Shown: positions 4,831-62,930, counted from the first letter of the stretch. The stretch is 64,000 bases of DNA from Sphyrna mokarran (GCA_024679065.1 JAGIQG010000013.1:84568001-84632000), one strand, 5' to 3'. Notes: generated by a model not told the origin, from the letters alone. Translations and numbers: made by a program.

Positions 4831-4873
4831 TTGAATCCCGCCACAGCAGATGGTGAAATTTGAAGTATAGCAC

Positions 4874-8557: not shown

Positions 8558-8839
8558 TTTCTCCTTCAGTGACCATCTCCTTCATTGACTTGGAAGCTAC
8601 TGAGCATCCCAGCCAGCTGCAGTGCACTGTGGCTGGCTTCTACCCACGGGCTCTCAATGTGAGCTGGCTGAAGGATGGTAGGAGCATTGAGCAGCATATA
8701 ACACACACTCCGATCCTGCCTAACAGTGAGAACACCTTCCAGACTGCTGCATACATCAATATTGAGCCCAGCACAGGGAACAACTACACCTGCCTTGTGG
8801 AGCATGTCACCTTTCCCCAGGGGCACCGCATTAACTGGG
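8558..8839 (+). CDS. Gene A: MHC C1-set Ig domain exon (class I alpha3 / W-category beta2-like)
   Basis: tgcttag|TT TCT CCT...AAC TGG G|gtaggt, 282 bp, phase 1-1; xSPSVTIS...LQCTVAGFYPRALNVSWLKDG...ILPNSENTFQT...YTCLVEHVTF...INW. Confidence 0.93.
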
Positions 8840-9996: not shown

Positions 9997-10107
9997 TCCC
10001 CCCACATCGCAGCTCAGTGTCGCCTGCTGCCATTGTTGGAATTGTGTTCGGAATTGTGGGAATCATTGCAGCTGTAGTTGGAGGTCTAGTTCGGATGAAG
10101 CGTCAAG
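9997..10107 (+). CDS. Gene A: connecting peptide/transmembrane exon
   Basis: Long polypyrimidine tract then aag|TC CCC...CAA G|gtatgg, 111 bp, phase 1-1; VPPHRSSVSPAAIVGIVFGIVGIIAAVVGGLVRMKRQ. Confidence 0.88.
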
Positions 10108-15710: not shown

Positions 15711-15740
15711 GCCACCAATCCAGACTGATGGAACCCAAAG
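15711..15740 (+). CDS. Gene A: cytoplasmic exon 1 (GHQSRLMEPK)
   Basis: cttcctttcag|GC...AAA G|gtaatt, 30 bp, phase 1-1, in frame with the TM exon. Confidence 0.7.
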
Positions 15741-15820
15741 GTAATTATAAACACAAATGTCTGCGCTTCCCATAGTGTAACCCGCTCCCATACTCACAGC
15801 ACACTCTGCTTTCCCCACAG

Positions 15821-15907
15821 TGCTTTTCCAGAAATGTCAAGAACGACAATCAAACCGGAGTCAGACAAGCATGCGTTCGAATGTCTCGGCCTCCAGCGCA
15901 ACTTCAG
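15821..15907 (+). CDS. Gene A: cytoplasmic exon 2 (VLFQKCQERQSNRSQTSMRSNVSASSATS)
   Basis: ttccccacag|TG...TCA G|gtaatg, 87 bp, phase 1-1; Ser-rich end parallels gene B exon 46588-46662. Confidence 0.72.
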
Positions 15908-39645: not shown

Positions 39646-40064
39646 GTCCCACCTAGTGGACAATGGTGTGATTGTGGTGTCCAACTCCCTTCATTCGAAA
39701 CAGATTCCTTTCTATAGAACCATGATAGGAAGTCACATGGGACAGGTTCCAACAAAGCCTGACACCCCCAAGACACATAAGATTGAGATAAGCTCCAGGA
39801 TTGCATGTGGAATCACTGATTGAGCTCTCTGTCGCATCATTCTTTATTCATTCATGAGACATGGGCGTCACTGATTGGCCAGCATTTACTCATAAAATGC
39901 TGCAGTGCAGAATGAGATCATTCAGCCCATCGAGTCTGTCCCAACCACAAACCCACCAAGGCCCAAGCCCCATAACCCCCATGCATTCACCCTCCTAATC
40001 TCCGTCACTAAGAGACAATTTAGTACAGCCAATCCACCTAACCTGAACATCTTTACATTTCATC

Positions 40065-40795: not shown

Positions 40796-43241
40796 TGAGA
40801 TGCTTGCAGTGGAAGCGGTTGTAAGGTATTGGGCCTAGTTAGAGTGACAATGTTGAGTCAGGAGTGTGACGGAATACTCTCCACTTGCCTGGATGGGTGT
40901 GGCTCCAACAACACTCGAGAAACTTGCCGCCATCCAGGACACAGCAGCCCGCCTGATTGTTTGTTGATGTGGTGCCATTCACTCACTCCATCACTGATGC
41001 TCAGTAGCAGCAGGGTGTATTATCCACAATCACTTCCATCTAGAAGGCAGCAGATAAATGGGAACACCACCACCTGCAAGTTCCCCTCCAAGCCACTCAC
41101 CATCCTGACTTAGAAATTTATCACCATTCCTTCCCAGTCACTGGGTCAAAATCCTAGAATTCCTTCCCTAATAGCATTGTGGGTTAACCCACAACACATG
41201 GACTGCATCGATTCAAGAAAGTAGCTCACCACCACCAACTCGGGATGAGCAATAAACGCTGCCAGCTAGTGACTCCCAGGCTTAGGTAATTTAACAGTAA
41301 ATGCTTATTTATATTTTTAAAATACTTATTTACGACTGGACCCTCTACACATAGATACAACAGAAATCCAAGTGAGAAACTGTGTCCAAGCTTGCTTCTA
41401 CACACTTCTCTGTCCAACACTACACTGACCCCATTGAGAGTGAGAATGGAAATTTTTTAGCATTCCTGGCAAAACTCCTTTCAAAGGCCTTGGAAAATCC
41501 CAGCTCAGGAGCGAAGATGGAAGACAATGGGTGGAAATTTCCAGCCTCAGTCGCCCTGAAACTGGAAAATTCCGCCCGAGGTCCCCATGTCTTTCCGTGA
41601 CCTGCCCCCTTACCCACTCCGATTCCAGTGGTGGGCAGAATGGGAACATTTGCCCCAACTGATACAGTTTTCCTTCACGGGAATTGGAGTAGGCCAGGGA
41701 TGGACCATGGGAATGTCTGTTGACCTTGGATACAGTTTTCTGGTTTCAGGGTGAACGAGGTTGCCCCTAATGTCTAATACTGGAGGCCACACACTGAAGG
41801 TGAGAGGGGCAAGTTCAGAGGAGATGTGAGGGGCAGGGTTTTTTTTTAACACAGAGAGGGGTAGGGGTCTGGAACGTGCTGCTGGGGGTGGTGGTGGAGG
41901 CAGATACAACAGGGGTGTAAGAGGGCTTTTAAATAAGCATAGGAACATTCTCTTCTACACCCTTCCCAAAGCCTCCACATCCTTTCTGTAATAGGAGAAT
42001 ATGGACAAAGGCAGGCAGAAGGGATATGTTTTGTTTAATGTCAACTTCAGCACAACACCATGAGCTAGGCACTTGAGAAAGTGGTGGGGTGAACCTGCTG
42101 AATTCCCATGTGGTGTAGGTACACCCACAGTGCTGTTAGGCCGGGAGTTCCAAGATTTTGACCCCAGTGATAATGAAGGAATGGCTGATATATTTCTAGT
42201 GGCACAGTGGTCCAAAGATGCGCGGATTAAGTGGATTGGCCACGCTAAATTACCTCAAGGGGGCAAGCGAGGGCAAACGCATGAGGTTACAGGTATAGAG
42301 CCTGATTGGGATTGTTGTCAATGTAGATTTGATGGGTTGAGTGGCCTCCTCCTGCACTGTTTGGGACTTTATGATACAATGATTCCAAGTTGAGATAATG
42401 AGTGACTGAGAGGGGAACCTCCAGGTGGGGGTGTTCCCAGGTATCTGCTGACCTTGCCCTTCTAGATGGTAGAGGTGGTGGGTTTGGAAGGTGTTGCCTA
42501 AGGAGCCTTGGTGAGTTGCTGCAGTGTGTTTTGTAGATGGTACACACGGCTGTCACTGTGCGTCGGTGATGGAGGGAGTGAGTGTTTGTGGTTAGTGTGT
42601 CGATCGAGCGGGGCTGCTTTGTCCTGGATGGTGTCGAGTTTCTGAGTATTGTTGGAACTGCACTTGTCCAGCCGAATGGGAGAGCAGAGAATAGAGCAAA
42701 AAGGTGACATCCTGAAAAAAGGAAAATCAGTATTCTGAGCAACAGGGATGTGGAGGGAGCACGGCTAACAGAGGAGTCAACTCAGGAGAACTTGGGTTGG
42801 CGATTTGACAAGGCAGGCAGAGTGGATGTGAGAGGATATCGTGAGACAGGCTCAAGTAACATGCAAATCTCCTGGTTGCATTAAACATTGCAGACATTGA
42901 TATTGTATTCTGGGTGTAAAATAATCAGAAAGGGGTAACATTCTCCCGGGAAACGTTTTTCTCATCTACTAACAGAATTAAATAAACTGAGCAGCTGGCA
43001 GAATTTCCCATTCAACAATTGCGTCTCTGAACCAATTGATGGGACTAAATTCCCATTCCTGATTTCAGGGGACACGAGACGACTGGAGTCATCTGAGGTC
43101 TTATGGTCTTGCAATGCCCCAGGCAGGGGAGGGGTGGGAGGGGGTAGGAGATAGTGGGAGGGTGCCAAGGCCTTCTGGTTTCGATGGTCAATCTTGAGTG
43201 GATGCGGGGCTGAGAGTCCATTCATTTTCCACGTACATCTG

Positions 43242-43267
43242 TTAAGCCTCTCCTTGTGTCCACATTC
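43242..43267 (-). CDS. Gene B: candidate last coding exon (GMWTQGEA*)
   Basis: tctgactgcgttttgcttcccag|GA ATG TGG ACA CAA GGA GAG GCT TAA; phase 1; size and position parallel to the gene A last exon. Confidence 0.45.
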
Positions 43268-43329
43268 CTGGGAAGCAAAACGCAGTCAGATCATATTGAC
43301 AGCTAACAATATTGCAGTACTTACATCCC

Positions 43330-43597
43330 TGTGGCACAGTAGTTAGCACTGCCCCTCACAGTGCCAGGGACCTGGGTTTGATTCCCAACTTATCTCACTG
43401 TCTGTTCTCTCCGTGTCTTCAGTTTCCTCCCACTATCTGAAAGACGTGCTGGTTAGGCTGCATTGGTCGTGCTAAATTCTCCCTCAGTGTACCCGAACAG
43501 GGTACCGGATTGTGGCAACTGGGGGATTTTCACAGTAACTTCATTGCAGTGTTAATGTAAGCCTGCTTGTGACACTAATAAATAAACTTTAAACTGA
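43330..43597 (+). mobile_element. V-SINE, internally deleted
   Basis: Head and tail as in 15280-15570. Confidence 0.8.
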
Positions 43598-43614
43598 ATA
43601 ATAGGAATGAAACG

Positions 43615-44150
43615 AAGATTGGCCACATGGTTAACATTAAGGTGGAGTGTCTTGGATTACAAGAAGATATAAACAGAATGGTCAAATGAGCAGATAAATG
43701 TCGGATGGAATTTAACCCCGAAAAGTGTGAGGTGACACACTTTGGAAGAAGTAATTTGACAAGGAAGAACTCAATGAATGGTAGGACACTAAGAAGATCA
43801 GTGGAGCAAAGGGATCTTGGCGTGTTTGTCCACAGATCTCGGAAAGCGGAAGGGCATGTTAGTCGGGTGGTGAAAAAGGGCAGATTGGACACTCGCCTTT
43901 ATCAATCCAGGCACAGATTACAAAAGCAGAGAGGTCATGTTGGAGTTGTATTGAATTTGGTGAAGCCCCACAGCTGAAGCACTGTGTGCAGTTCTGGGTC
44001 ACCACATTATAGGAAGGATGTGATTGTACCGGAGCGGGTGCAGGGGAGATTCACCAGGATGGTGTCTGGGATGGAACAGTTACGTCATGAAGAGAGGTTG
44101 GATAGACTTGGGTTGTTTTCAGTGGAGCAGAGAAGATTGAGGGGCAACCG
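43615..44150 (+). mobile_element. CR1 RT fragment, decayed
   Basis: MEFNPEKCEVTHFGR, SPHYRKDV. Confidence 0.88.
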
Positions 44151-45724
44151 AGCCTCAACCAATTAGGGTCAATTTGCCAGCAGCTTTTCTGATTGGATAT
44201 TGCCAATGCCATCTCATCCAGAAGAACAAAGGCAGCAGATAGCTGGGAACACCCCCGCCTGCAAGTTCCCCTCCAAACCATTCACCATCCTGACTGAGAA
44301 ATATATCCGCCATTCCTTCACTGTGGCTGGGGTCAAAATCCTGGAATTCCCCCCCTTGCAGTGCTGTGTACTTACACCTCCTAGATTGCAGTGGGTTCAA
44401 GATGGCAGCTCACCTACCACCTTGGGTTTGATAAAGTAAACACAGACCAAATGTTTCCTATTCATAGAATTACAGATTCCCTACAGTGTAGGAGGAGGCC
44501 ATGTGTCCCATTGAGTCTGTACCAAACACAATCCCACCTAGGCACTATTCCCGTAATCCCTCATATTTACTCCGCTAATCCCCCTGACAATAAGAGGCAA
44601 TTTAGCTTGGCCAATCAACTTAACCCACACATCTTTGGACTGTGGGAGGAAACTGGAGCACACAGAGGAAACCCACACAGACACAGGGAGAATGTGTAAA
44701 CTGCACACAGACAATGACATTGACAGTGACAGGGGCAATCTGGAACCAGAGATCACAGCAATAGGTTGCGAGGCAGTATTCAACATTCAGAGGATAAAGA
44801 ACTACTTCTCGCAGAGGGTGGTAAATGAGCGTCCCAGAGCTACAGAGTCTGAATCATTGAATGGTTTCAAGAAGGAGATAGACATATTTCTAATAAAAAA
44901 AGGATATGGGGAACAGGTGGGGAGAGATGGATTTGAGATCAGAGAGAGATCAGCCATGATCTGATTGAATGGTGGAGCAGGCTCAAAGGGCTGGATTTGC
45001 CAACTTCTGCTCCTGAATCCTACGTTCCCGTGTTCCATCTTCTCAAGAGACAATTAGGGATGGGCAATAAATGCTGGGTCTAATCAACCACGCCCACATC
45101 CTATAAACGAAGAAAGGAAGAAAGGAATTGTTGTGATGGGTTTGAAATTTGGCGTTCTGGTGTTGGGGCTTATGAGTGGGAGTCACAAAGTTTCAGCAAC
45201 TCGTCTCTATTTAACCTCTCTCAGTGTTCATCTCCAATCCATTTCTCCTGCAATCCATTGTGGGATGCTGGTGGAGCTACTGGACTGGGATTGGGAAGAT
45301 GACAGAAGCCCAAGAGACGAAACAGGTTGGGTGGAACCCTCCAAGTGTGGAGAAGGGATTACAATCAGCAGCAATACAGACCCTCTCCCCCACTGCACGC
45401 ACCCCCCCCCGCCATAAACCACACATTCCACCACCCCGCCCCTCATCCCATTCTGAACTTGGCTGCAAATTTATAAATATAATTCAGAGAGACAGAGGTT
45501 TAATGGTTAAGGCCACCGGCCTTGTATTAATACTCTGGGAGACAAGGGTTCAAATCCCACCACTGCAGCTTGTGGAATTTAAATTCAATTCCTAACAGCT
45601 GGAATATTCAAAAAGCAAATCTTAGTGTTGATAATTGTTGATTTCCTTTTGGAATTAATTATTACAAAAAATTGCCTAAAAAAACCCATCTGGTTCACAA
45701 AAGCCCCTTTAGAAGAATGAATCC

Positions 45725-46300
45725 AGCACAGGAGCAGGCCCTTCAGCCCTCCATGCTACCTGAACTAAACTAAAAAACCTTTCTGGCCTTACTCAGTCCG
45801 TATCCCTCTATTCCCTCCCTATCCATGTACCCATCCAGATGCCTCTTAAAATGTTGCTAATGTGTCTGCTTCTATCACCTCCTCTGGCAGCATGTTCCAG
45901 ACACCTACCATTCTCTGTGTGAAAAACTCCCCCACACTTCTCCCCCTTAAATTGTCCCCCTCTCACCTTGAACCTGTGCCCCCTTGTAATTGACTCTTCC
46001 ACCCTGGGCAAAAACCTCTGACTATCCACCCTGTCTGGGCCTCTCATCATTTTGTAGATCAGGTTCCCCCCTCAGCCTCTGTCTTTCCAGTAAAAACAAT
46101 CCTAGTTTATCCAACCTCTCCTCATAGCCAACACCCTCGAGACCAGACAACATTCTGGTAAACCTTCTTTGCACTCTCTCCAAAACTTCTCCATACTTCT
46201 GGTAGTGTGGCACCCAGAACTGTACACAATACTCCAAATTCTTCCCAACCACGGTTTTATATAGCTGCAACATGATTTCCCAACTCTTGTACTCAATGGA
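45725..46300 (-). mobile_element. CR1 3' fragment, decayed
   Basis: [23 protein letters not shown]. Confidence 0.88.
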
Positions 46301-46587
46301 AGAGAGTTCCAAACTCCCACCACCCTACCCAAATGCGAGCTAACCAAGGTTAGGGAAGGAAATCTGCTGTCTTTACCTAGTCTGACCTACAGGTGACTCT
46401 CGACCACACACACAGCAATGCAGTCAACTCCTAACTGCCTCCCCTGAAATGGCTGTAGCATTACACTTGGGTCAGTGGGAAATTAGGGATGGGAATAAAT
46501 ACTGCCTCTCCCTGGTTCCCATATCCCATGTGAAATAAAGGGCCAATGCTGTGTGGCTATATGTCGGCTATTGAGCTCGTCTATTAC

Positions 46588-46662
46588 CTGAATCTGCTGC
46601 AGAGGAATCGGGATTGACCTGTCTCTGGTTTGGCACAGCTTCAGAGCCATAGGCAGAGAATC
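46588..46662 (-). CDS. Gene B: cytoplasmic exon (GFSAYGSEAVPNQRQVNPDSSAADS)
   Basis: tttctttcccag|GA TTC...TCA G|gtaatag, 75 bp, phase 1-1; ends like gene A exon 15821-15907. Confidence 0.65.
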
Positions 46663-47529
46663 CTGGGAAAGAAATCACCAACGCACGCTCTGAATACATG
46701 GCTGACACGCCTCACTGCCAAACTTCCAGCACCCCCTAATCTCTCAGAGCTCCGTGAGAGCTGTTCCCAAGTGAAATGCAATATGGAACTGTTTGTCTTT
46801 AACAGGAGAAAGATGGAAGGAACAGCGAACCATTGAGCCAAATGCTCCTGTTTGCATCTACCGTCCTTGGCTACACACACAGACACACACAGACACACAC
46901 AGACACACACAGACACACACAGACAAAACACAAACCTGTCACTTCTGCCTCACACGAGGCTTACATTAGATAATGGAATGTAGACATGGCTGGAAAGAAC
47001 AGCACTTATTGTCCTGTAGTAGTACATGTTTGCATGGTAGCCTCAAACAGACAGAATACACATTGCATTTTTCACTCCATCACAGTTATATGTTTCAGAC
47101 AGTCAGAAGGTGCATAACAATATAGAAATTAAGAACAGAAGTCGGCAAATTCAGCCCTTTGAACGGTGGAGCGGGCTCAATCAGATCATGGCTGATCTCT
47201 CCCTGGTTTCAAATCCACTTCCATACCTGTTCCCCATATCCTTCTTTTCTTATTCAAAATATGTTTATCTCCTTCTTGAATCCGTTCAATGATTCAGACT
47301 CCACCGTGCTCTGGGACAGTGAGTTCCACACATTCATCACCCTCTGCAAACAGTTCCTCCTCCTCTCAGTGTTAAATCTACTGCCTCTTACCCTATCTCT
47401 GTGATCTCTGCTTCCAGATTGCTCCTGAAGAGAAAACACTTAGTCTACATTGACTTTATTGATTCCTGATAGAATTTTATATATCTCAATCAGATCCCCT
47501 CCCATCCTTGTAAACTCCAGTGACTCTGA

Positions 47530-47990
47530 GAATGCAGCCAAGGCGGCCTTCATGACACACGACAGTGCAGAGTCACTGACCAGAGATTGATAGCCAAGTT
47601 CCACACACATGAGGACGGTCTTAACAGGGATCTTGGGCTCATGTCACACTATCTGTAACCCCCATGACTTGCCTGGGCTTGCAAAATCTCATGAACTGTC
47701 CTGTCTGGAGACAATACACATCTCTTTAACCAGTGTTTAACCCTCTCTCCACTCACATTGTCTGCACTTTTAAGACTTGATTAGCTGTAAAGACTCACAT
47801 TCCAACCATTATTTTGTAAATTGAGTTTGTGTCTTTATATGCTCAGTTTGTGAACAGAATTCCAACTCACCTGACGAAGGAGTAGCGCTCTGAAAGCTAG
47901 TGGCTTTTGCTAAACCTGTTGGACTTTAACCTGGTGTTGTGAAACTTCTTACTGTGTTTACTCCAGTCTAACACTGGCCTCTTCACATCA
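47530..47990 (+). mobile_element. Penelope 3' end + LTR
   Basis: Encodes a decayed LIAKF.THEDGLNRDLG end followed by the terminal repeat. Confidence 0.88.
47868..47902 (+). ncRNA. Minimal type I hammerhead ribozyme motif (Penelope LTR)
   Basis: CAC-CUGACGA-A-GGAG-UAGCG-CUCU-GAAA-GCUA-GUG. Confidence 0.78.
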
Positions 47991-48062
47991 TTACTAACCC
48001 AGTGACATGATCACTGCACCACCAGGCAAAGGGTTTATTATAACTTGCATCAATACTTTTAC

Positions 48063-48167
48063 CTCTGTACCTGCCGATGCCTCCAGCCAGGGCAATGATG
48101 ATTCCAGCAACCCCGATTACAATCCCAGCCACATATCCGTGAGTTGGCCAACTTTTCACCTTGACAG
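48063..48167 (-). CDS. Gene B: connecting peptide/transmembrane exon
   Basis: gatccacag|CT GTC...AGA G|gtaaaa, 105 bp, phase 1-1; AVKVKSWPTHGYVAGIVIGVAGIIIALAGGIGRYR (not in the ORF track). Confidence 0.88.
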
Positions 48168-48354
48168 CTGTGGATCAAGTTAGAATTAGAGTTGGAAGAT
48201 GTCACAATTCTGGGTGGGATTGAAGTCTGCTTTGTATCCTTCCTGGGCCCTGTGCTACCTCACATTGTGGGTCACAGTGAGGCCCAGATAGTGGGCAGCC
48301 ATGCCCATATCTACACCCTGGCATCTTGCTCCTAGAAAGTGCCAGAAATCAATC

Positions 48355-48785
48355 AAAGAACAAAGAACAAAACAGCATGGGAAACAGGCTCTTCGGCCCA
48401 ACGAGCCTGTGCCGCTACCCCGATGTTCCCACCTCTACCTGTGATCCCTGTCTATGTTTATAGATCTATGGATTAAAAACGATATTTGAGACAATTTAGG
48501 GAGAATTTGTTTTGCCAATTAGCCTAAGAGCATATGTGTGTGGGATGTGGGAGGAACCGGGGAGCACCCAGAGAAAACCCATGCAAGCACGGGGAGAATG
48601 TGCGCAAACTCCACAGACACAGGCCCAAATCCATGTATCTGCACAGCACAGCGATAGTCACTGAGCTGTCATGTTGCCCATCAAATGGTCCAGGTCAAGT
48701 GTACACTAACGACGTGAAGCACTAGGAAAAAATCCAAGAGCAGCCCTCTCATGACCCATTGCGTGTATGCTCCTTGTTAGACATT
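48355..48785 (-). mobile_element. Composite CR1/V-SINE element, fourth copy (3' unit only)
   Basis: Highly similar to 32250-32700. Confidence 0.85.
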
Positions 48786-49350
48786 GTTAGAATCAAGTGA
48801 CATTTCCATTCCAGTTATCCCTGTGCATCACCACTCCCACCAGAAATGTGAGTAAGCTCACCAACAGAGAGAGATTACACATGCATCCAAGGCACCAGCG
48901 CTCTCTATCGTTAACAGATATCAATGCCATTACCTTCCCAAAGCTGACCCTGAACACCCATCCTTGCCTAAAAAACCCATCAATCACAGAATTCAAATAG
49001 CCTGGAATCTCCCTTTGTATCTCAGAGGCACTGAAACCCATTCAAGAGTCTTTGGTGAGACGGAAGGACATTTAGTTTAAATGCAATGTGAGCACCCTGT
49101 GAATCAGAGCCTCTACCTGTACCCACACCCTGACGACTGACACACTAACAGTTACCCGTTGCTTGTAAATGAACCACTGTTTGACCTTAAAATAACATAG
49201 GTAAATCACCCTGTTTGCTAAAGTGGTTAGATTTATTTATGTGTAAGATTATACAGAGCAATAATCAATGCAAGTGGCTAATTCTCCTGAAGCAGTAAGG
49301 AAGCAGGTAATGTTTCTTTATGTCTCAAGTGATTGTGGGAGAGGGCTTAC

Positions 49351-49632
49351 CCCAGGTTGCAGTTAGCTTGTCGGTGCTGCTACTGTGCTCCACTTGGCAG
49401 GTGTAGATATCTCTGCTCTGGGGAGTGATGCTGATTTGCAGGGTCGTCTGGAAAGTCCCGTCTGAATTTGGTAAAATCCTGCTCCTCAGCATCTCCTGCT
49501 GGACACTGCCAGTGTTGTGCAGCCAGGTTGCGTTGATATCACTTGGATAGAACCCGTTCACGTGACAGATAAGAAGTAAAGGGTCATCCTCTCTGTGCAG
49601 GCGATGTGCAGTTATGTTGACAGAGGGCTTGG
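49351..49632 (-). CDS. Gene B: MHC C1-set Ig domain exon (class I alpha3 / W-category beta2-like)
   Basis: ctctacag|CC AAG...ACC TGG G|gtaagc, 282 bp, phase 1-1; AKPSVNIT...LLICHVNGFYPSDINATWL...ILPNSDGTFQT...YTCQVEHSS...TATW. Confidence 0.94.
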
Positions 49633-51589
49633 CTGTAGAGAGGGAAGGACAGCCAGATAACGTACAACGATATACTGGGAGATCCCCCTGCCCGCCTGCG
49701 CCCCTGCAGATATTACTCCCTCCACCATTACCACACTGCTTGATTGCCCCTTCTACCTGACCGTCACCATGGAATGATTGCCATCCCCACCCTCACTCCC
49801 ACCTCGTTATCCCGAATGATTAACTTATCCCTGGGACCTGGGTGTCACTGGTTGGGCCAGTATTTATTGCCCATCCCTAGTTGCCCCTTGGAGGGCAGTT
49901 GAGAGTCACCCACTTTGCTGTGACTCTGGAGTCACACGTAGGCCAGACCAGGGCTAAGAACAGCAGATTTCCTTCCCTAAAGGGAACCTAATAGTTTTTT
50001 CCGATAATAGGTCATCATAGATTCTTAATTCCAGACTTTTTTAAAATTGTATTCAAATTCCACTATCTGCCGTGGTAGGATTCGAACCCGGGTCCCTGGG
50101 ACATTCGTTGAGTTTCTGGTGTAATAGTCTAGCGATAACACCACTAGGCTATTGGCTCCTCTCCCCTCTTATGGACCAAACCGCACCCCCTCCCTCATCA
50201 GATCCCACCCCATCAAGCTCCATCCCCTCAAGCTGTGCCCTCAGGGCCATCCTGTCTTCACCCATCAGGCCTCATCCCCTTGGCATGTCATGTCATGGCA
50301 GCAGAGACAGAGTGCTCAATTGGCAATGCCATGGTGGCATGTTGGCACTGCCCCATGGGAACCACCTAGAGGGTTCAATAGGCTGTGGTTCCGCTGATGA
50401 AAGATTATAACATCATGCCTGGCCCCTGTTGGTGGGGTCCATCTGTGATTCTCACCAGTGAGCATCTTCCTGGGCACAAGGCGGGTAGTTGGTGGTGGTT
50501 ATGGCAAGGAAGACTGGCCAAAAGTGTCTGATGCTTGTTAATGACATTAAATATTGAAATTAGGAAGGGGATGAGGCTGATTTTGCTGGAAAAATGAGGC
50601 CAGCAAGATCATGCGAGGTGAGAAATCGGTGGTGAGCCACTCGGCCTATCTTACTGGGTGCCAGGCCAGTCAATTGATTGATTGTGCCTGGAGTGTTTGT
50701 TTTAAGCTGAACTAATGCAGAGTTCTGTTGTTTGATGTTTTCCTCTGGTATATTGCAGAGTGGGGTTTGATTGGATTGATTGACAGGTAAAGTTATAGGA
50801 CAGGGAGGGGTTAGGCTTTCACAGAGAACTCAAGCAAGTCTGCTTATGAACCTTCAGAGGAGGTCACTTTCTCTAGATTCTCTTGATCTGTCTGACATGG
50901 AGACTGGAATCAGCCAAGAAATGGCTACCATTTGTGGGAGTGGGGGTGGTTTTCTCTGGAGGGTTTGGTCTGAGAATTAGAAGACAGGTATCCGTCTGGA
51001 TCATTTTCCAGAGGGGTTAAAATGTTGGAAATCTAGTATCCCAGTAAGCATCTTAGGTTTCTGTGCTAACTGGCTCTAAAGAACATAGAACAATACAGCA
51101 CAGAACAGGCCCTTCGGCCTTCGATGTTGTGCCGACCAAAATAAAAAGCAATGCCCCTCCTAACTAAACCATTCCCTTCTCATCCATATACTTATCAACT
51201 AACCTCTTAAACAGCACCAAACTTGGCGCATCTGGCCAAAAGTGTCTGATGCTTGTTAATGACATTAAATATAAAAGAAGAGGTTTGTGTCTGTGGGGAA
51301 CACTGCTACATTGGAACAACAGAGAGAGCTAGTTGTTAAATGTTATACTTTGTCCTGTTTAATCACGTTTATTGATAAATGTTATGCTCATTCTTTGTTA
51401 TATTATAACTGTCTTCTTAAATAAACTTGATTTGATAAAAGTGCCTAGTAGTCACTGGAATCACACATGATACTCACCCAAATGCCAAAATCAAATGTAA
51501 AATTCGGGGTCTTGGCTAACTCCATAAAACACATTGGAGTTTTTGATCTGCTCCTTACTGCTCCATCTAGCACTGTTTCCCTTTGCCTG

Positions 51590-52830
51590 CCTCTCGCTCT
51601 CTCTCTCTGTCCCATTCTGTCCATCTCGCTCTCTCTCTCTCTGTNNNNNNNNNNNNNNNNNNNNNNNNNNNNNNNNNNNNNNNNNNNNNNNNNNNNNNNN
51701 NNNNNNNNNNNNNNNNNNNNNNNNNNNNNNNNNNNNNNNNNNNNNNNNNNNNNNNNNNNNNNNNNNNNNNNNNNNNNNNNNNNNNNNNNNNNNNNNNNNN
51801 NNNNNNNNNNNNNNNNNNNNNNNNNNNNNNNNNNNNNNNNNNNNNNNNNNNNNNNNNNNNNNNNNNNNNNNNNNNNNNNNNNNNNNNNNNNNNNNNNNNN
51901 NNNNNNNNNNNNNNNNNNNNNNNNNNNNNNNNNNNNNNNNNNNNNNNNNNNNNNNNNNNNNNNNNNNNNNNNNNNNNNNNNNNNNNNNNNNNNNNNNNNN
52001 NNNNNNNNNNNNNNNNNNNNNNNNNNNNNNNNNNNNNNNNNNNNNNNNNNNNNNNNNNNNNNNNTCTCTCTCTGTCCATTCTCTCTCTCTCTCTCTCTGT
52101 CCCATTCTGTCCATCCTCTCTCTCTCTCTCTGTCCCATCTCTGTCCCATCTGTCCATCTCTCTCTGTCCCATTCTGTCATCTCTCTCTCTCTGTCCCATT
52201 CTGTCCATCTCTCTCTCTCTGTCCATTCTGTCCATCTCTCTCTCTCTGTCCCATTCTGTCCATCTCTCTCTCTCTGTCCCATTCTGTCCATCTCTCTCTC
52301 TCTGTCCCATTCTGTCTCATCTGTCCATCTCTCTCTCTCTGTCCCATCTGTCCATCTCTCTCTCTGTCCCATTCTCTGTCCATCTGTCCATCTCTCTCTC
52401 TCTCTGTCCCATCTNNNNNNNNNNNNNNNNNNNNNNNNNNNNNNNNNNNNNNNNNNNNNNNNNNNNNNNNNNNNNNNNNNNNNNNNNNNNNNNNNNNNNN
52501 NNNNNNNNNNNNNNNNNNNNNNNNNNNNNNNNNNNNNNNNNNNNNNNNNNNNNNNNNNNNNNNNNNNNNNNNNNNNNNNNNNNNNNNNNNNNNNNNNNNN
52601 NNNNNNNATTCCATCCGTCTCTCTCCCTCTCTCTTTCTATCTGATTGTCTTTCCCTCACTTTGTCTGTTTGTCTATCCCTGTTTTAGTCTCTCCCCTTCC
52701 CTCTCTCCCTGATCTCTCTCTGTTCCAGTCTTTCTATCTCCCTCGCTCCCCCCTCCGTCTCAGTCTCGCTCCCCCCTCCGTGTCTCCCTCTTTCTTTATC
52801 TCTTTCATTGTGTGTGTGTCCTCCTCCCCC
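51590..52830. repeat. (CT)n/ctgtcccatt simple repeat with two N gaps
   Basis: Direct composition. Confidence 0.9.
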
Positions 52831-52917
52831 TCTCCCTTTCTCAGTGTATTCTTTTCAAATGCTCATTGAATCTAATCTTATTATTGGCCACATGTCCCTG
52901 TAATTTGCCTCAGGCAT

Positions 52918-54008
52918 GGAGATGCCGGTGTTGGACTGGGGTGAACACGGTAAGGAGTCTCACAACACCAGGTTAAAGTCCAATACGTTTCTTAGGTAGC
53001 AAACGCCACTAGCTTTTGGAACGCTGCTCCTTCATCAGGGCAGATAAAAACAGAAACTCAATTTACAAAATAATGGTTGAAATGCGAGTCTTTACAGGTA
53101 ATCAAGTCTTAAAGGTACAGATAATGCGAATGGAGAGAGAGTGTTAAGCACAGGTTAAAGAGATGTGTATTGTCTTCAGACAGCACAGTAAGTGAGGTTG
53201 TTTATTAACCCAGGCAAGTCATGGGGGTTACAGATAGTGTGACATGAAACCAAGATCCCGGTTGAGACCGTCCTCATGTGTGCGGAACTTGGCTATCAGT
53301 CTCTGCTCAGCGACTCTGCGCTGTCGTGTGTCACGAAGGCCCCCTTGAAGAACATTTACTCGAAGATCAGTGGTTGAATGCCTGCGACCGCTGAAGTGTT
53401 CGCCAACAGGAAAGGAGTAGTCTTGCCTGGTGATTGTCGAGCGATGTTCATTCATCCATTGTCGTAGTGTCTGCACAGTCTCCCCAATGTACCATGCCTC
53501 AGGATATCCATTCCTGCAGCGTATCAGGTAGACAATGTTGGCCGAGTTGCTTGAGTATGTGCCATGTACCTGGTGGATGGTGTTCTCACGCGGAATGATG
53601 GTATCCATGTCGATGATCCGGCATGTCTTGCAGAGGTTGCTGTGGCAGAGTTGTGTGGTGTCGTGGTCACTGTTCTTCTGAAGGCTGGGTAGTTTGCTGT
53701 GGACAATTTCTGCTTGAGGTTGTGCGGTTGTTTGAAGGCAAGAAGTGGTGGTGTGGGGATGGCCCTGGTGAGATATTCGTCATCAATGACATGTTGAAGA
53801 CTCCGGAGAAGATGTTGTAGCTTCTCCGCTCCAGGGAAGTACTGGAAAGGTGAAGGGTACTCTGTTCTCTGTGTCCTGTGTTTGTCTTCTGAGGGAGGTC
53901 GATGCGGGTTTTCGCTGTGGTGCATCGGAACTGTCAATCGGTGAGTCAAACGCCATATCTTGTTCTTATGAGGGCATCTTTTAGTGTCTGGAAGTGTCTG
54001 TTGCGATC
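52918..54008 (-). mobile_element. Penelope 3' part (GIY-YIG + LTR), inverted partner of the adjacent copy
   Basis: NIVYLIRCRNGYPEAWYIGET...GLNRDLG; LTR hammerhead decayed (GAAA to AAAA). Confidence 0.92.
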
Positions 54009-56460
54009 TACAAGAACACGCTACTATCTACGTGTACACCAAGAACAGAAAACTTGAGAAACTTGACATCACCAGCAGCAGCAACCAAGCCTCCTGAGAT
54101 ATCACACTGAAAACAGTACCACTGCAGGGAAGTCCATCGTTAACTTGTCAGACTATACATTTCAACCAGATGAAATCAAAGTTCTCAGCTGAGGGCTCAA
54201 TTTCTGCCCCACCATCAAAACAGACCTCATCAGTCTCGCAGCAGACGCAGAGGAATTCATCAGGTGAATGAGGCTGTGGGAGTTTTTCCACAAACCCCAA
54301 GAGGCCAACAGCGAACACAATGAAACAGCCAATGAAGCAGAACGGCCGACAGAGAAATCTACAGTGCAGCAACCAAAGAGGAAAGAGTCCAATTGGACTC
54401 CTCCGGAAGGCTACTGCCCTTGACTTGACGTATGCCCAAGCCATTAGGACATGTGTCAATACCAGATTCATCAACCACACTTACAAGACAGCCCTGAGCA
54501 TCACCAAAGCACCACGCAACATCATCCGTGCTCTCGAGACGAACCGCAACATTGTCATCAAACCAGCAGACAAAGGAAGGGCCATCGTCATACTGAACAG
54601 AATAGATTACTGCAAAGAAGTGTACCGACAACTGAACAACAAGGAACATTACAGACAGATCCGATCAAAGAACACACTTGTCAACTCAACACTCTGATCA
54701 AGACCTTTGATCCGGACCTTCAGACCATCCTCTGTGCTCTTATCCCACGTGCTCCCCACATTGGAGATCTCTACTGCCTCCCAAAAATACACAAGGCAAA
54801 CACACCTGGCCGTCCCAATGTATTGAACAATGGTACCCTGTGTGAGAACCTCTTCAGCTACGTCAAGGCCATCCTGAAACCCACTGTACAAAAAACCTCC
54901 AGCTTTTATTGTGAAACTACAGACTTCCCTCAGAAACTCAGCAGTTAAACCAGGATCACTTCTAATTGCAATGGATTTAGATAGTTTCATGGGTACAATG
55001 GGTATAGAGGGATATGGGCCAGATGTGGGCAATTGGGACTAGTTTAGGGGTTTAAAAAAAAGAGTGGCATGGACAAGTTGGGCCAAAGGGTCTGTTTCCA
55101 TGCTGTAAACCTCTCTGACTCTATTCTGGACCACAATGTCTTCACCTTCAACAACCAGTTCTTTATCCAAACACATGGAACAGCCATGGGGACCAAATTC
55201 ACACTTCAGTATGCCAACATCTTCACGCACAGGTTCGAACAAGATTCCTTCACCGCACAGGACCTTCAACTGATGCTATACATCAGATACACTGATAACA
55301 TTTTCTTCCTTTGGACTCATGGTGAGCAATCGCTGAAACAACTATATGATGACATCAACAAACTCCATTCCACCATCACACTCACCATGGACTATTCTCT
55401 AGAATCGGTTGCATTCTTGGACACACACGTCTCCATCAAGGACGGTCACCTCAGCACCTCTCTGTACCGCAAACCCACAGATAACCTCACAATGCTCCAC
55501 TTCTCCAGCTTCCACTCTACACACGTTAAAGAAACCATCCCCTATGGACAAGCCGTCCGTATCACAAGATCTGCTCAGATGAGGAGGATCGTGACAGGTA
55601 CCTCCAGAGGCTGAAAGATGCCCTCATGAGTACAGGATATGGTGCTTGCCTCATCGATCAACAGTTACATGTCACAGCAAAAAACCGCACCAACCTCCTC
55701 AGAAGACAAACACGGGACACGGTGGACAGAGTACCCTTCATCATCCAGTACTTCCCCAGAGCAGAGAAGCGACGACATCTTCTCTGGAGTCTTCAACATG
55801 TCATTGCTGAAGACGAACATCTCGCCAGGGGCATCCCACACCCTCAATTCTTGCCTTCAGACAACCGCACAACCTCAAATAGACCATTGTCCACAGCAAA
55901 CTACTCAGGCTTCAGGAGAACAGTGACCACAATACCACACAACACTGCCACAGCAACCTCTGCAAGACATGCCAGATCATCGATCATCATTTCACGTGAG
56001 AACACCATCCACCAGGTACACGGTACATGCTCTTGCAACTCGGCCAACGTTGTCTACCTGATACGCTGTAGGAATGGATATCCTGAGGCATGGCACATTC
56101 GGAAGACCATGCAGAAACTACGACAATGGATGAATGAACATCGCTCGACAATCAGCAGGCAAGACTGTTCTCTTCCTGTTGGCGAACATTTCAGCGGTCA
56201 TGGGCATTCAGCCTTTGATCTTTGGGTAAATGTTCTCCAAAGCAGCCTTCACTTCACAACAGCGCAGAGTTGCTGAGCAGAGACTGATAGCCAAGTTCCG
56301 CACACGTGAGAACGGCCTCAACTGGGATCTTGAGTTCATGTCACACTATCTGTAACCCCCCATGACTTGCAACATCTCACTAACTGTCCTGGCTGGAGAC
56401 AATACACATCTCTTTAACCTGTGCTTAACGCTCTCTCCCCTCACATTGGCTGTACCTTGA
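54009..56460 (+). mobile_element. Penelope-like element, long decayed ORF (RT + GIY-YIG), with a CR1 tail insertion at ~54965-55120
   Basis: IVIKPADKG, LYCLPKIHK, QTHGTAMG, YIRYTDNIF, SLYRKPTDN, NVVYLIRC. Confidence 0.93.
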
Positions 56461-56592
56461 GAGTGTGAGCAAGGGTGTGAACGTGAGCGAGTCTGAATGT
56501 GTGAGCGAGTGTGTGTGTGTGTGTGAGTGTACGCTTGTGTGTGTGTGTGTGTGTGTGTGCAAGCGAGTGTTATTCACTTTAATGTCACTTAC

Positions 56593-56850
56593 CAATCAGC
56601 CTGTGAGCTACCTGTATAACATTCTCTGCCACGAGGGGTGCGAATGAGCCATAACGGATATACCGTTTGACCATCCTCTCATTCGCATTGAGACTCTGGA
56701 TGAATGGTTCTGCTACTGGTTTAGTGGCCACGAACTGATTGGTGGAATAGTTGAATCGGATAAACTCTGTCCCGTCGTAGGCAGCACTCAGCTTTGTGGC
56801 TGGGGTTTGGGAATTATCAAAGGTGAGCTTTAACTGGATGATGTGTGTCC
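56593..56850 (-). CDS. Gene B: MHC membrane-distal domain exon (class I alpha2 / class II beta1-like, no Cys)
   Basis: ttttctcatccag|GG ACA CAC...ATT G|gtaagt, 258 bp, phase 1-1; GTHIIQLKLTFD...AAYDGTEFIRFNYSTNQFVATKPVAEPFIQSLNAN...AHRLI. Confidence 0.88.
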
Positions 56851-56984
56851 CTGGATGAGAAAAGCAGGGCAATTAATCTGAGTAACCATTCCGAATCCAA
56901 CAACTGCATCTGACCTTTCCCTCTGGAAACCCCCTCCCCCACAAATTCCTTCCCTTCATCGACTACGTTGGCCCACGTTTAGTT

Positions 56985-58970
56985 TGCAGATCACAGTAAG
57001 ATTGGCCGTGTGGTTAACAGTGAGACGGAATGTCTTGGGCGATAAGAATTTATAGACGGAACGGTCAAATGGGTGAATAAATGGGCGGATGGGATTTAAC
57101 CCTGAAAAGTGAGGTGACACACTTTGGAAGGAGTAATTTGACAAGGAAGAACTCAATGAATGGTAGGACACTAGGAAGATCAGTGGAGCAAAGGGATCTT
57201 GGTGTATTTGTCCACAGATCTCGGAAAGCGGAAGGCATGTTAGTCGGGTGGTGAAAAAGGGCAGATTGGACACTCGCCTTTATCAATCCAGGCACAGATT
57301 ACAAAAGCAGAGAGGTCATGTTGGAGTTGTATTGAATTTGGTGAAGCCCCACAGCTGAAGCACTGTGTGCAGTTCTGGGTCACCACATTATAGGAAGGAT
57401 GTGATTGTACTGGAGGGGGGCAGAGGAGATTCACCAGGGATGGGACGGAACATTTAAGTTATGAAGTGAGGTTGGATAGACTTGGGCTGTTTTCATTGGG
57501 ATACCAGAACACCTCATTCACCTGACAAAGGCCATAGAGCCGAAAGCTTACGAGTTCACTATCAAATAAATCGGTTGGATTTAAAACTGATGTTCTCAGT
57601 CTTTTAACTGTTTTCATTGGAGCAGGGAAGACTGAGGGATGATCTGATCGAGGTGTACAAGATTATGAGGGGCACGGACAGAGTGGATAAGGAGCAGCTG
57701 TTCCCTTTAGTTGAAGAGTCAGTCACGAGGAGGACACAGGTGAGGGGCAGGAGGTTTAGAACATAGAACATTACAGCGCAGAACAGGCCCTTCGGCCTTC
57801 GATGTTGTGCCGACCAATTAAGAAAAAGCAATGACCCTCTAACCTAAACCATTCCCTTTTCATCCATAAACCTATCTACTAACCTCTTAAACGCCACCAA
57901 ACTTGGCGCATCTACAACTGACACAGGCAAGGCATTCCATACCCTTACCACCCTCTGGGTAAAGAACCTACCTCTGACATCCGTCCTAAAACCACCACCC
58001 TTAATTTAAAGCTATGTCCCCTCGTGCTAGTTTTCTCCATCCTAGGAAAAAGGCTATCACCGTCCACCCTATCTAAACTTCTAATCATCTTATATGTTTC
58101 AATAAGGTCTCCTCTTAGCCGCCTCCTTTCTAACGAAAACAACCTCAAATCCCTCAGCCTCTCTCATAAGACCTGCCCTCCATACCAGGCAACATCCTGG
58201 TAAACCTCCTCTGTACCCTCTCCAATGCCTTCACATCTTTCTTATAATGCGGGGACCAGAACTGCACACAATACTCCAAGTGCGGCCGCACTAGAGTTTT
58301 GTACAGTTGCAACATGACGTTGCGGCTCCGAACTTCAATCCCCCTACCAATAAAAGCTAAGACTCCATATGCCTTCTTAACAACCTTATCGACTTGATTG
58401 CCAACTTTCAGGGATCTATTGACATATACACCAAGATCCCTCTGTTCGTCAACACTGTTGAGAGTCCTACCATTAGCCCTATACTCTACACCTTTGTTAT
58501 TCCTGCCAAAGTGAATTACCTCACACTTTTCCACATTAAACTCCATTTGCCACCTCTCGGCCCAGCTCTGCAACTTGTCCAAGTCTCTCTGCAAACTATA
58601 ACACCCTCTTCACTATCTACCACTCCTCCGACTTTGGTGTCATCCGCAAATTTACTAATCCATCCTTCAATACCCTCATCCAGATCATTTATAAAAATTA
58701 CAAACAGCAGTGGCCCCAAAACAGATCCCTGAGGGGGGATGTGAGAAGAAGCTTTCTACCCAGAGGGTGGTAGAATGTGCTGCCTGGGAGGGTGGAAGAG
58801 GCAGGGTGCCTCACATCCTTTAAAAAGTACCTGGAGAAGCACTTGGCACATCATCACATTTGGGGCTCTGGGCCAAGCGCTAATGGATGGGATTAGGTGG
58901 GAGACGATGTGTTTTAATGTGTCAGTGGAAACTCGATGGGCTGAAGGGCCACTTCTATACTATAAGATTT
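56985..58970. mobile_element. Nested cluster: decayed + strand CR1, interrupted by a Penelope LTR fragment (~57500-57600) and a younger - strand CR1 (~57758-58730)
   Basis: CR1 RT translations on both strands; LTR motif cctgacaaaggccatagagccgaaagctt. Confidence 0.88.
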
Positions 58971-59182
58971 GATGATTCACAATATTCAATATCCTCTATC
59001 ACCCCCCCCCCACCACCACCACCGCACCCCCCACCCTCCCAACCCGCTACCCTCTGGCCCCCTCCCAGTCGTCCTTACCCACCCACACACTCCCCCATCC
59101 CCTGGCAACTCAAGCAAACTTCCTCTCTCGGGGGCAGTGAGAGGGTGAGGAGGAGGCAGCTCTGAACACTCCCCAGACCGGG

Positions 59183-59231
59183 ATGCTCGGAAACGCCATG
59201 CTCCTACTGCTGGGACTCTTCCAGACTGCAG
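59183..59231 (+). CDS. Intact signal-peptide exon MLGNAMLLLLGLFQTA (inverted copy; probably the true gene B leader sequence)
   Basis: ATG CTC GGA AAC GCC ATG CTC CTA CTG CTG GGA CTC TTC CAG ACT GCA G|gtaagc; phase 1 joins in frame to GTHIIQ, but on the wrong strand as assembled. Confidence 0.65.
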
Positions 59232-61756
59232 GTAAGCGGTGGAGAAGGAGGGGGGCGGAGAGAGGGAGGAAGGAGTGGGGGGGGAAATGAGATGGAGAAG
59301 GAGGGGGGGGAGAGAGGGAGAAGGAGGTTGGGGAGAGAGGGGAGAAGAAGGAGGGTGGGGGGACGAGAGAGGGAGACGGAGGGGGGAGGAGAGAGGGAGG
59401 ACGGATGGTGGGGGGGAGAGAGGGAGAAGGAGGTGGGTGGTGAGAGAGGGAAAGGAGGGGGGAGGGAGAGGGAGAAGGAGGGGGGAGGAGAGAGGGAGAA
59501 GCGAGGGGGGGGGAAAGAGAGGGAGAAGGGGGGGGAGGAGAGGGGGAGGAAGAGGGGGAGGAGAGAGGAGAAGGAACGGTAGACACACACAGGGGGGCGG
59601 GGGGAGTAGAGGGGAGGGGGGGGCGAGAGGAGGGANNNNNNNNNNNNNNNNNNNNNNNNNNNNNNNNNNNNNNNNNNNNNNNNNNNNNNNNNNNNNNNNN
59701 NNNNNNNNNNNNNNNNNNNNNNNNNNNNNNNNNNNNNNNNNNNNNNNNNNNNNNNNNNNNNNNNNNNNNNNNGAGAGGGAGGGGGGGAGAGCGGGAGGGA
59801 GGGGGGGTGGGGGAGAGAGAGGGATGGGGGGGGAGAGAGGGGAGGGGGGGGATGAGATGGAGGGGGAGGAGAGAGAGGAGGGGGGGGAGAGAGAGGGAGG
59901 GGGGGGAGAGAGAGGGAGGGGGGGGAGAGAGAGGGAGGGGGGGGGAGACGAGAGAGGGAGGGGGGGAGGAGAGAGAGGGAGAGGGGGTGGGAGAGAGAGG
60001 AGGGGGGGGAGAGAGGAGGGAGGGGGGAGAGAGAGGGATGGGGGGGAGAGANNNNNNNNNNNNNNNNNNNNNNNNNNNNNNNNNNNNNNNNNNNNNNNNN
60101 NNNNNNNNNNNNNNNNNNNNNNNNNNNNNNNNNNNNNNNNNNNNNNNNNNNNNNNNNNNNNNNNNNNNNNNNNNNNNNNNNNNNNNNNNNNNNNNNNNNN
60201 NNNNNNNNNNNNNNNNNNNNNNNNNNNNNNNNNGGGGAGAGAGGGGGGGGGGAGGGGGAGGGGGGAGGGGTGGGATGGGGGGGAGGGAGGGAGGGGGGAT
60301 GTGGGGGCGGGGGGAGGATGGGGGGGAGGGGGGATGTGGGGGGGGAGCGCGGAGAAGAGGGAGGGGGGAGAGAGGGAGGGGGGGCGGAGAGACGGAGGAG
60401 GAGAGGGACGGGAGAGAGAGAGAGAGACGAGGGGAGAGAGGCGGGAGGGAGGGAGACGGCGGGAGGGAGGGAGGGAGGGGAGGGAGGAGAGGGGGGGGGT
60501 TGGCAGAGATAGGAGGGAGGGGGCCTGTGGAGAAAGGAGGGAGGTGGGGCTGTGAAAGAGAGAGGAGGAGGGGGGCTGTGGAGAGAGAGGAGGGGGGGGC
60601 TGTGAGAAGAGGAGGGAGGGGGGCTGTGAGAGAGAGGAGGGAGGGGGGCTGTGAGAGGAGGAGGGAGAGAGATGGGCGGCAGAGAGAAAGAGAAGGAAGG
60701 AGGGTGCAGAGAGAAGAAAGAGGAGGGGGGGGCGCAGAGAAGAGAAAGAGAGAGGAGGGGTGCACAAAGGACAGAGGGGGGAGCTGAGAGAGAGGAGTGG
60801 GGTCAGCATGTGTGGTGGTGGGTGGTGTGTGAGGGGGGGGGGGGGGGGGTGGGGCGTATGGGGGGTGGGTGGGGGGGTGGGGTGGGGTGTCGGAGGGGGC
60901 AGGGTGGGGGGGGGAGGGGGGAGGGGGGGGGTGGACGGGGGAGGGTGGAGGATTGGAATGGAGGTGGAGTAGGGGGGGGGTGAGGGGTGGGGGGGGGGTG
61001 AGGGGTGGGGGGTGGTGGGGTGGAAGTTATCACAAATTACCTCACACCCGCCATACCTCCATGCTCCAAAACCAAAACCCCCCACCACCCCCAAATCCCT
61101 GATCCCTTCTACACCACACACCCCCCCCCATTCACCCTACACCACCACCCAACCCCAAACCCCCCAAAAACCATCCCCCACCCCATCCCCCACTCACCAC
61201 CCTCAACCACCATCAGCACCCCCTCAACTCCCCACCACCATCCAGCACCCCAGCTCCCCCTTCCACCAACCCTAGCAACCGCCTCCTCACCATCTAATCC
61301 CATCCACCACACTTGATCCCAACTTTCCCCAAGGGGTCAACCAACACTACACCACCCCCCCAACCCCCACCCCACCACAACATGCTGACCCCCACATCCT
61401 CCCTCCCTCCCACTCCTTCCCCTATCTCCCTCCACACCTCTCCCTCTCTCCCACCCCACTCCTCTCTCACCTCTCCCCTCCCCGCACTCCTTCTCCCTCT
61501 ACCCTTCCCCCCACACTCTTCTCCCTCTCTCCCTCCCCCAACTCCTTCTCTCTCTCACTTCCCCCATCATTCTCCCATCTCTCCCTCCCCCACTCTTCTC
61601 CCTCTCTCCCTCCCCCCAACTCCTTCTCCCTCTCTCCCTCCCCCCACTCCTTCTCCCTCTATCCCTCCCCCCCACTCCTTTCCTCTCTCCCTCCCCCCCC
61701 CCGCCTTATCCCTGTCTCTCTCTCCTCCCCCCCCCCCCCCCTTCTCCACCGCTAAC

Positions 61757-61804
61757 CTGCAGTCTGGAAGAGTCCCAGCAGTAAGGAGCATGGCGTTCGA
61801 GCAT
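61757..61804 (-). CDS. Gene B leader exon in the correct orientation, frameshifted as assembled
   Basis: Reverse-complement copy of 59183-59231 with small indels and a gttagc donor; surrounded by error-prone homopolymer sequence. Confidence 0.6.
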
Positions 61805-61953
61805 CCCGGTCTGGGGGAGTTGTTCAGAGCTTGCCTCCTCCCTAACCCTCTCACTGCCCCCGAGCCAGAGGAAGTTTGCTTTGAGTCGAGAAAATGCACC
61901 TTTCCTTACTCGCTGCTTCCTGCTTCTGCTTCCAGCTGCGATCTTTCAGAGGG

Positions 61954-62051
61954 ATGAGATTTCATCCCAATTACAGCCGGCGCTGTGCACAGAGTCACTC
62001 CTCCTCCTCCTTCCTCCTCATCACAACGGGAACAGGCGCACCCAGCAACCG
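61954..62051 (+). other. Candidate leader exon of a third, divergently transcribed gene
   Basis: gggATGaga..., (ctc)n Leu-coding run then FLLITTGTGAPSN, strong donor cg|gtgagt followed by a G-rich intron like that of the gene B leader; frame ambiguous. Confidence 0.4.
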
Positions 62052-62052
62052 G

Positions 62053-62930
62053 TGAGTGAAGGATGGGAGGAGGGAGAGGGAGAGGGAGAGGAGAGAGGGG
62101 AGAGGGAGAACGGGCAGGGGAGGGGGGGGAGGCGGGAGGAGGGGGAGGGGAGGGGGGAGGGGGAGGGGGGGTGGAGGAGGGGGGAGGGGGGGGGATTTTT
62201 GAGGGAGGGGGGGGAGGGGGGGGGGGAGGGGGGGGAGGGGGGGGGAGGGGGGGGGAGGGGGGGGGGGAGGGGGGGGGGTCCGTGAGACGGGCGGGGGGAG
62301 AGTGGAGAGCGGGATGAAAAAAGGGGAGGGGTAAGGAGGGGAGGGGGGAGGGGTTAAGGAGGGGAGAGGGGGGAGGGAGTTAAGGAGGGGGGGGTAAGGA
62401 CGGGGGGGAAGGAGGGGGGGGGGGGAAGAAGGAGGGGGGGGGGAGGGAGGGAGGGGGGGGGCGGGAGGGAGGGGGGGGGGAGGAGGGAGGGGGGNNNNNN
62501 NNNNNNNNNNNNNNNNNNNNNNNNNNNNNNNNNNNNNNNNNNNNNNNNNNNNNNNNNNNNNNNNNNNNNNNNNNNNNNNNNNNNNNNNNNNNNNNNNNNN
62601 NNNNNNNNNNNNNNNNNNNNNNNNNNNNNNNNNNGGGGGAGGGGAGGGAGGGGGGGGGGAGGGAGGGGGGGGAGGGGAGGGATGGGGCGGGTGAGGAGTG
62701 AGTGGGGGAGGGGAGGGGGGGGGAGGGGAGGGGGGGGGAGGAGGTGGGGGGGGGGGGGAGGGGGGGGGCCGGGAGGGGGGAGGGGATGGAGGGGGGAGGG
62801 GAGGGAGGGGGGGGGGAGGGAGGGGGGGGTAATGCCTTTTTAATACAAACGATTAGTGGGGGGGGGGGGGGAGGGGGGGGCCGGGGGGGTTGGGGTAGGG
62901 GCGGGGGGGGGGGGTGGCCGGGGGGGGGCT

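Follow-up and report, generated by a model that had tools for sequence, protein, structure and literature searches.

The locus analyzed here, a window of 64,000 nucleotides from the genome of the shark Sphyrna mokarran, carries a gene (gene B) which combines the two-ectodomain architecture of MHC class II with residues of the class I interface. The question raised is whether gene B belongs to the W category of MHC genes, to a related lineage not described before, or to the three-domain class I heavy chains, the alpha1 exon being hidden in a poorly assembled intron. The sequence-only reading had favored a W-category beta chain, and in this it was right, according to the per-exon identity to WB DS1, the clade formed with DS1 proteins and the two-domain layout: gene B almost certainly encodes the WB DS1 beta chain of a W-category MHC molecule, about 264 residues long.

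Exons, domains and relatives of gene B

The five exons expected for the distal, C1, transmembrane (TM) and cytoplasmic parts are all present and in frame (Table 1). AG acceptors are found at each of them, from 56850-56593 to 43267-43242, and GT donors at the four internal exons, which remain in phase 1 because their lengths are divisible by three. The beta2 exon matches the Pfam C1-set with an E value of 1.4e-19, and the banded houndshark WB DS1 protein finds the exons in order by tblastn, with E values from 1.7e-52 (beta2) to 3.4e-5 (last exon). Gene B is thus no chance match but a real gene. The beta1 exon features sub-threshold Pfam matches only (MHC_I, E 4.5e-4; MHC_II_beta, E 0.017); used alone to search PDB, it gave no significant match, the best being an unrelated helicase subunit (E 0.044), with MR1 at 0.13.

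The residues by which the gene had been recognized, H3, Q6 and AYDGxE in the distal domain, LPNSDGTFQ in the C1 domain, are all in place. Beta1 has Q6, A32 and G35, and at position 37 the class I D is replaced by E, as in all the DS1 rows seen of Dataset S1 (PMC8713811). The cysteine pair carried by the examined rows of class I alpha2 and class II beta1 has no counterpart in the beta1 of gene B, which is free of cysteine. Beta2 features P57 and G61, and lacks the W61 invariant in conventional class II beta chains. The hydrophobic TM segment is identical to that of houndshark DS1 and has class II beta-type glycines; GxxxG is reported in W beta chains (PMC13399432).

Table 1. Features of the W-category genes in and around the window. 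Fractions are identical residues; P0007 is the reference houndshark WB DS1 protein; L numbers denote loci fetched from the genome.
Feature	Position	Strand	Remarks
Locus window	84568001-84632000 of JAGIQG010000013.1 (scaffold label C335)		gene B on minus strand
WB DS1 5' UTR and leader exon, correct orientation	61757-61886	-	ATG 61804; frame-broken as assembled
WB DS1 5' UTR and leader exon, accurate copy	59107-59231	+	ATG 59183; 16 residues, phase 1; contig match; 13/17 to houndshark leader
WB DS1 beta1 exon (membrane-distal domain)	56593-56850	-	Q6, A32, G35, E37; no cysteine; 68/85 to P0007
WB DS1 beta2 exon (Ig C1-set)	49351-49632	-	P57, G61; 81/93 to P0007
WB DS1 connecting peptide (CP) and TM exon	48063-48167	-	GxxxG glycines; 32/34 to P0007; Dataset S3 rows
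WB DS1 first cytoplasmic exon	46588-46662	-	20/24 to P0007
WB DS1 last cytoplasmic exon	43188-43267	-	early TAA ending 43242; second stop near 43188
WA DS10 leader exon (probable)	61985-62052	+	garbled as assembled; GTGAGT donor; by eye
WA DS10 alpha1 exon	L002:1830-2080, about 12 kb beyond the right edge of the window	+	81% to houndshark DS10
WA DS10 alpha2 exon	L003:2365-2646, beyond the window	+	83/95 (about 88%) to houndshark DS10
WA DS10 TM exon	L003:5268-5460, beyond the window	+	tblastn
Gene A (WB DS3 ortholog), beta1 exon	L011:8934-9208	+	
Gene A, C1 exon	8558-8839	+	matches WB DS3 rows
Gene A, TM exon	9997-10107	+	matches WB DS3 rows
Gene A, further exon	about 15724-15907	+	
WA Nds3-like gene	L012:3460-8150; probable leader L011:2575	-	head-to-head with gene A
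WB Nds5-like gene (third pair)	L022 (C335:83.83 Mb)	-	
WA DS5-like gene (third pair)	L022:9778 to L023 (C335:83.83 Mb)	+	

The reference used, P0007, was matched by eye to the row 'banded houndshark WB DS1 n1 01' in Datasets S1-S3 of PMC8713811. Per-exon identity to this protein ranges from 80 to 94%, and a hand count against the blue shark WB DS1-like rows of the same datasets gave 71/86 residues for beta1, 85/94 for beta2 and 33/35 for CP/TM. The first cytoplasmic exon has no counterpart in the shorter houndshark proteins P0003 and P0006. A protein search with the beta1 domain singled out one protein among 37 candidates, a Mustelus model 81% identical to it, which clusters in a group of seven including four Triakis scyllium proteins (BBJ00831-BBJ00834) and the class I alpha3 homolog Q7M2H2. 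The expectation that annotation would mislabel such a gene as class I proved true only of an isolated houndshark C1 domain, named class I alpha3; at NCBI the Mustelus ortholog goes under the name of a class II DR beta-like protein.

Among 27 C1 domains placed in a tree, gene B and two DS1 proteins form a clade supported at 100/97, found in 100% of 200 bootstrap trees, within which gene B has a branch length of 0.098. The tree includes 18 of the 20 C1 loci fetched from the genome (L041 and L053 were missed by the extraction pattern and dropped), labeled class I-like or class II beta from motifs and location rather than annotation, and holds no identified beta2-microglobulin row; its deep branches are unresolved, and WB Nds5-like is placed, with weak support (84/66) and on long branches, next to a class I-like row. 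Beta2 identity to the other 24 rows, sampled MHC class I and II domains of the S. mokarran genome among them, does not exceed 40/93. By the per-exon identities and the DS1 clade, gene B is an ortholog of the DS1 subgroup, which Datasets S1-S3 (PMC8713811) record in several sharks and one skate.

Compared with banded houndshark WB DS1 (BBJ00831-BBJ00834; PMC8713811), gene B has the same exon layout and agrees in the leader, in beta1 and beta2, in the TM part and in the first exon of the tail, along with E37, the cysteine-free beta1 and the head-to-head WA partner. It differs in the duplicated and inverted leader of the assembly, and in a tail shorter by 18 residues (43188-43244, minus strand), an early TAA replacing a glutamate codon so that, as assembled, the protein ends after 8 residues of the last exon. 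The gene had been predicted to end at 43242, and the early TAA is indeed there; homologous codons run 17 residues further, 10 of 17 still matching houndshark. The blue shark DS1-like row in Dataset S3 also ends near the early stop, but may be partial (PMC8713811). DS1-like genes are also listed for catshark, great white, bullhead shark, dogfish and skate, besides blue shark (PMC8713811).

Two ectodomains, the TM glycine motif and a paired alpha-chain gene are common to gene B and the class II beta chains, represented by nurse shark class IIB and HLA-DRB1; unlike these chains, gene B has G61 in place of W, P57, the class I-type A32 and G35 and no beta1 cysteine pair, and lies outside the MHC scaffold. 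The class II-like loci L044-L046 of this genome carry W at beta2 position 61. With class I heavy chains (alpha2/alpha3) gene B shares Q6, A32, G35, an acidic residue 37, P57 and G61, but its chain has no alpha1 domain and a class II-type TM, and the partner proposed is a membrane-bound WA chain rather than beta2-microglobulin. WB DS3 and WB Nds5-like, on the same scaffold, likewise belong to the W-category beta chains and each face a WA gene head-to-head, yet their beta2 domains are identical to that of gene B at 36/93 and 27/93 positions only, and DS3 has N61.

Leader exon and rival readings of the locus

The layout of gene B consists of a leader, one distal domain, one C1 domain and the CP/TM/cytoplasmic part, the leader being intact only in an inverted copy. 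Four of nine listed public runs were mapped on 56570-59245. In one of them (X1), a contig (record 1) of 1314 letters and depth 14 places its letters 518-774 on 56593-56849 with 0 differences, and letters 775-902 on the leader copy at 59107-59232, on the other strand, with nothing in between. The switch falls at the predicted splice sites, and leader and beta1 are therefore joined with nothing between them, as predicted from direct splicing of the leader to 56850. The join occurs in one contig of one of the four runs, the RNA status of which is a guess, and was read from the placement table, not being among the 15 joints printed, to which 88 unprinted ones are to be added. Run X2 covers beta1 with 1-15 differences per piece and has no listed join; runs X3 and X4 have no beta1 coverage, and their small word shares are no evidence. 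The claim that no alpha1 exon lies between leader and 56850 held as well: a tblastn search of 56851-62100 with two WA alpha1 domains and the DS1 beta1 domain found no alpha1-like exon (best E 0.33), and the two-domain layout recurs in 4/4 full-length houndshark ortholog proteins. The two short gaps reported in intron 1 correspond to two N stretches (59636-59772 and 60052-60233), which may or may not be assembly gaps.

These data weigh on both alternatives to a DS1 ortholog. Gene B might be a three-domain, non-classical class I heavy chain the alpha1 exon of which disappeared into the N stretches or into the misassembly at 59100-61750, a reading that could draw on the class I-type G61 and P57, on the weak, below cut-off MHC_I Pfam match of the distal domain, on top PDB matches that include class I and MR1 chains, and on the visibly poor assembly of intron 1. 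Against it stand the direct join in the contig, which leaves no room for a hidden alpha1 exon, the layout of the four houndshark proteins, a beta2 domain with 87-88% identity to DS1 but no more than 43% to the 11 class I-like domains sampled from the genome, the class II-type TM and the WA gene set head-to-head with gene B. The class I three-ectodomain layout is absent according to contig join, ortholog proteins and tblastn alike; the three-domain reading is largely refuted, and its probability is negligible. Hardly more probable is that gene B represents a W-related but undescribed lineage, as had been suggested. The sole difference in kind from houndshark DS1 is the shortened tail, and such a lineage is at odds with 80-94% identity per exon, with the short branch inside the DS1 clade and with the finding that the three described W pairs are all present once in the genome searches made. 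Judged by sequence, the lineage is the one already described as WB DS1 (PMC8713811), not a new one.

The leader itself is less plain. As assembled, no intact leader lies upstream of beta1 on the strand of gene B. The exon starting at 61804 is 48 nt long, in phase 0 and encodes no hydrophobic peptide; the copy at 59183-59231, on the opposite strand, is 49 nt long, in phase 1 and followed by a GTAAG donor. The statement that the leader splices in frame to the distal domain thus fails for the copy at 61804 and holds only for the inverted one. The houndshark leader matches part of the 61757-61886 copy, but in a different frame. One substitution and 8 internal indels (9 counting an end gap), mostly single letters added to runs, separate the two copies over about 130 nt; the copies belong to an inverted repeat of about 490 bases (59108-59569 vs. 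61397-61886) with 79% identity. The contig has 0 other letters and 2 gap letters against the inverted copy; its coding part agrees with this copy, its 2-letter UTR insertion with the copy at 61804. It then runs 412 letters past 59107, exactly where the leader copies stop matching, and none of these letters is placed on the sequence flanking the inverted copy. Since a plus-strand exon is of no use to a minus-strand transcript, either the true leader lies near 61804, or the haplotype differs from that of the run.

The frame break at 61804 is probably the outcome of long-read errors, and the duplicated, inverted leader is very likely an assembly artefact, a fold-back giving two noisy renderings of one locus. 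The alternative, that both the inverted copy and the broken leader are real and the haplotype has an inverted duplication in intron 1, in which case gene B may be a null allele, is improbable. It has in its favor that both copies are present in the assembly as a 79% inverted repeat. Yet the copies differ nearly only by single-letter indels in runs; the contig mixes the coding letters of one with the other's 2-letter insertion, which is what two noisy renderings of one locus would give; its 412 further letters are absent from the flank of the inverted copy; and the adjoining probable WA DS10 leader is garbled as well. The area around the duplicated leader is G- or C-rich noise with N stretches, and the Mustelus model likewise lacks a leader, its two genes residing on different contigs. 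Slightly less probable still is that the inverted copy is real DNA of a living haplotype with an inversion or duplication at the head-to-head WA/WB junction. It is by an event of such kind and place that the class I heavy chain has been proposed to have arisen out of a W pair (PMC8812513, PMC8713811). If real, the inverted leader would show that WA/WB junctions rearrange; here, though, no alpha1 exon has moved with it.

The WA DS10 partner and the proposed dimer

The gene facing gene B is WA DS10, the probable leader of which, not found by tblastn, was located by eye. Only about 180 bases, which include a CCAAT, separate the start codon of DS1 (61804) from the probable one of DS10 (61985). The spacing is far wider in the other two W pairs, at about 3.1 kb (gene A and WA Nds3-like, probable start codons) and about 2.15 kb (WB Nds5-like and WA DS5-like). 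By length, the 412 unplaced letters of the contig approximate the DS10 leader region plus the alpha1 exon, which would fit overlapping 5' ends. DS10 alpha2 carries L37, L55, Y57 and W61, while position 8 is F and not Y, as in houndshark DS10. With E37 in DS1 and F8 in DS10 alpha2, two class I-type contacts are therefore altered, as in houndshark.

A complex of the DS10 and DS1 ectodomains, with the houndshark orthologs as stand-ins, was modeled without alignments of our own and scored 0.75 (0.74-0.75 in three runs), against 0.16 for the best of three controls, with a contact agreement of at least 93% and a partner pLDDT of 84 or more. Of the microbial pairs, 51/78 solved and 2/108 mismatched ones reached the mark, and of the eukaryotic pairs 39/65 and 2/126, respectively. 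Similar MHC complexes have already been solved, and the pass may therefore reflect likeness only; as a model, it cannot say which WA chain binds DS1. DS10 residue 164 (W61) touches DS1 residues 22 (Q6) and 40 (A32) in the model, a contact of beta2-microglobulin type.

WB DS1 would pair with WA DS10 to form a class II-shaped heterodimer. The chains may be held together through the alpha1/beta1 sheet, through alpha2 W61 docking on Q6/A32 of beta1 in the class I manner, and through the two TM helices packing at their glycines. By analogy with salamander WA and WB, which mature and reach the surface only together (PMC8713811), both chains would be needed to reach the cell surface. The dimer may well act as a non-classical surface molecule of low polymorphism, offering to a lymphocyte receptor either one fixed ligand or no ligand at all, rather than diverse peptides; this role is favored because beta1 lacks cysteine and the locus lies outside the MHC. 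Presentation of diverse peptides to T cells in the classical manner is unlikely. The MHC fold has an intact-looking heterodimer interface in the model, and the groove profile is conserved in the W subgroup of teleosts (PMC8713811), but W genes are described as lacking a complete set of peptide-anchoring residues or high polymorphism (PMC8713811, PMC8812513), the beta1 cysteine pair is missing, and the locus resides on C335 whereas the class I/II cluster is found elsewhere, on C1548. A literature search with most subscription journals outside its coverage returned no paper on the ligand or structure of a W molecule.

Other W pairs and genomic setting

Searches of the 2.77 Gb S. mokarran genome located two more W pairs on C335. 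Gene A, the WB DS3 ortholog, is tail-to-tail with gene B and has N at position 61, as houndshark DS3; its last exon was not found. The third pair lies about 730 kb from the other two, which may reflect either a real rearrangement or an error in scaffold order. Three W pairs are reported in the great white shark (PMC8713811). Several RefSeq models from great white and basking shark (P0010, P0011, P0013-P0016; 391-439 residues) have the WA DS10 ectodomains fused to part or all of WA DS5, and may be either read-through transcripts or annotation merges. No such fusion is possible in the S. mokarran genome, as DS5 is about 810 kb upstream of DS10. C1 exons of class I-like and class II-like type form a large cluster at C1548:85.8-95.8 Mb (the L041 match carries a stop codon), which presumably corresponds to the MHC; the location of the W genes on C335 is in line with reports that in elasmobranchs these genes are located outside the MHC (PMC10751288).

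The window is rich in repeated DNA. Long tandem arrays at 1-5800, 17400-20000 and 34839-36035 give spurious long open frames, and CR1-like LINE pieces are numerous. Several retroelement fragments at 38685-39812 and 53231-56273, which we take to be Penelope-type, have reverse-transcriptase-like and GIY-YIG-like stretches.

W-category genes have been put forward as the intermediate linking MHC class II with class I (PMC8812513). Since houndshark clones of the DS10/DS1 pair exist, the locus neither changes the picture of the W category nor makes the open question of function newly testable. It adds one more shark with all three described W pairs, and supplies a WB DS1 gene model that corrects the leader exon, broken in the assembly.
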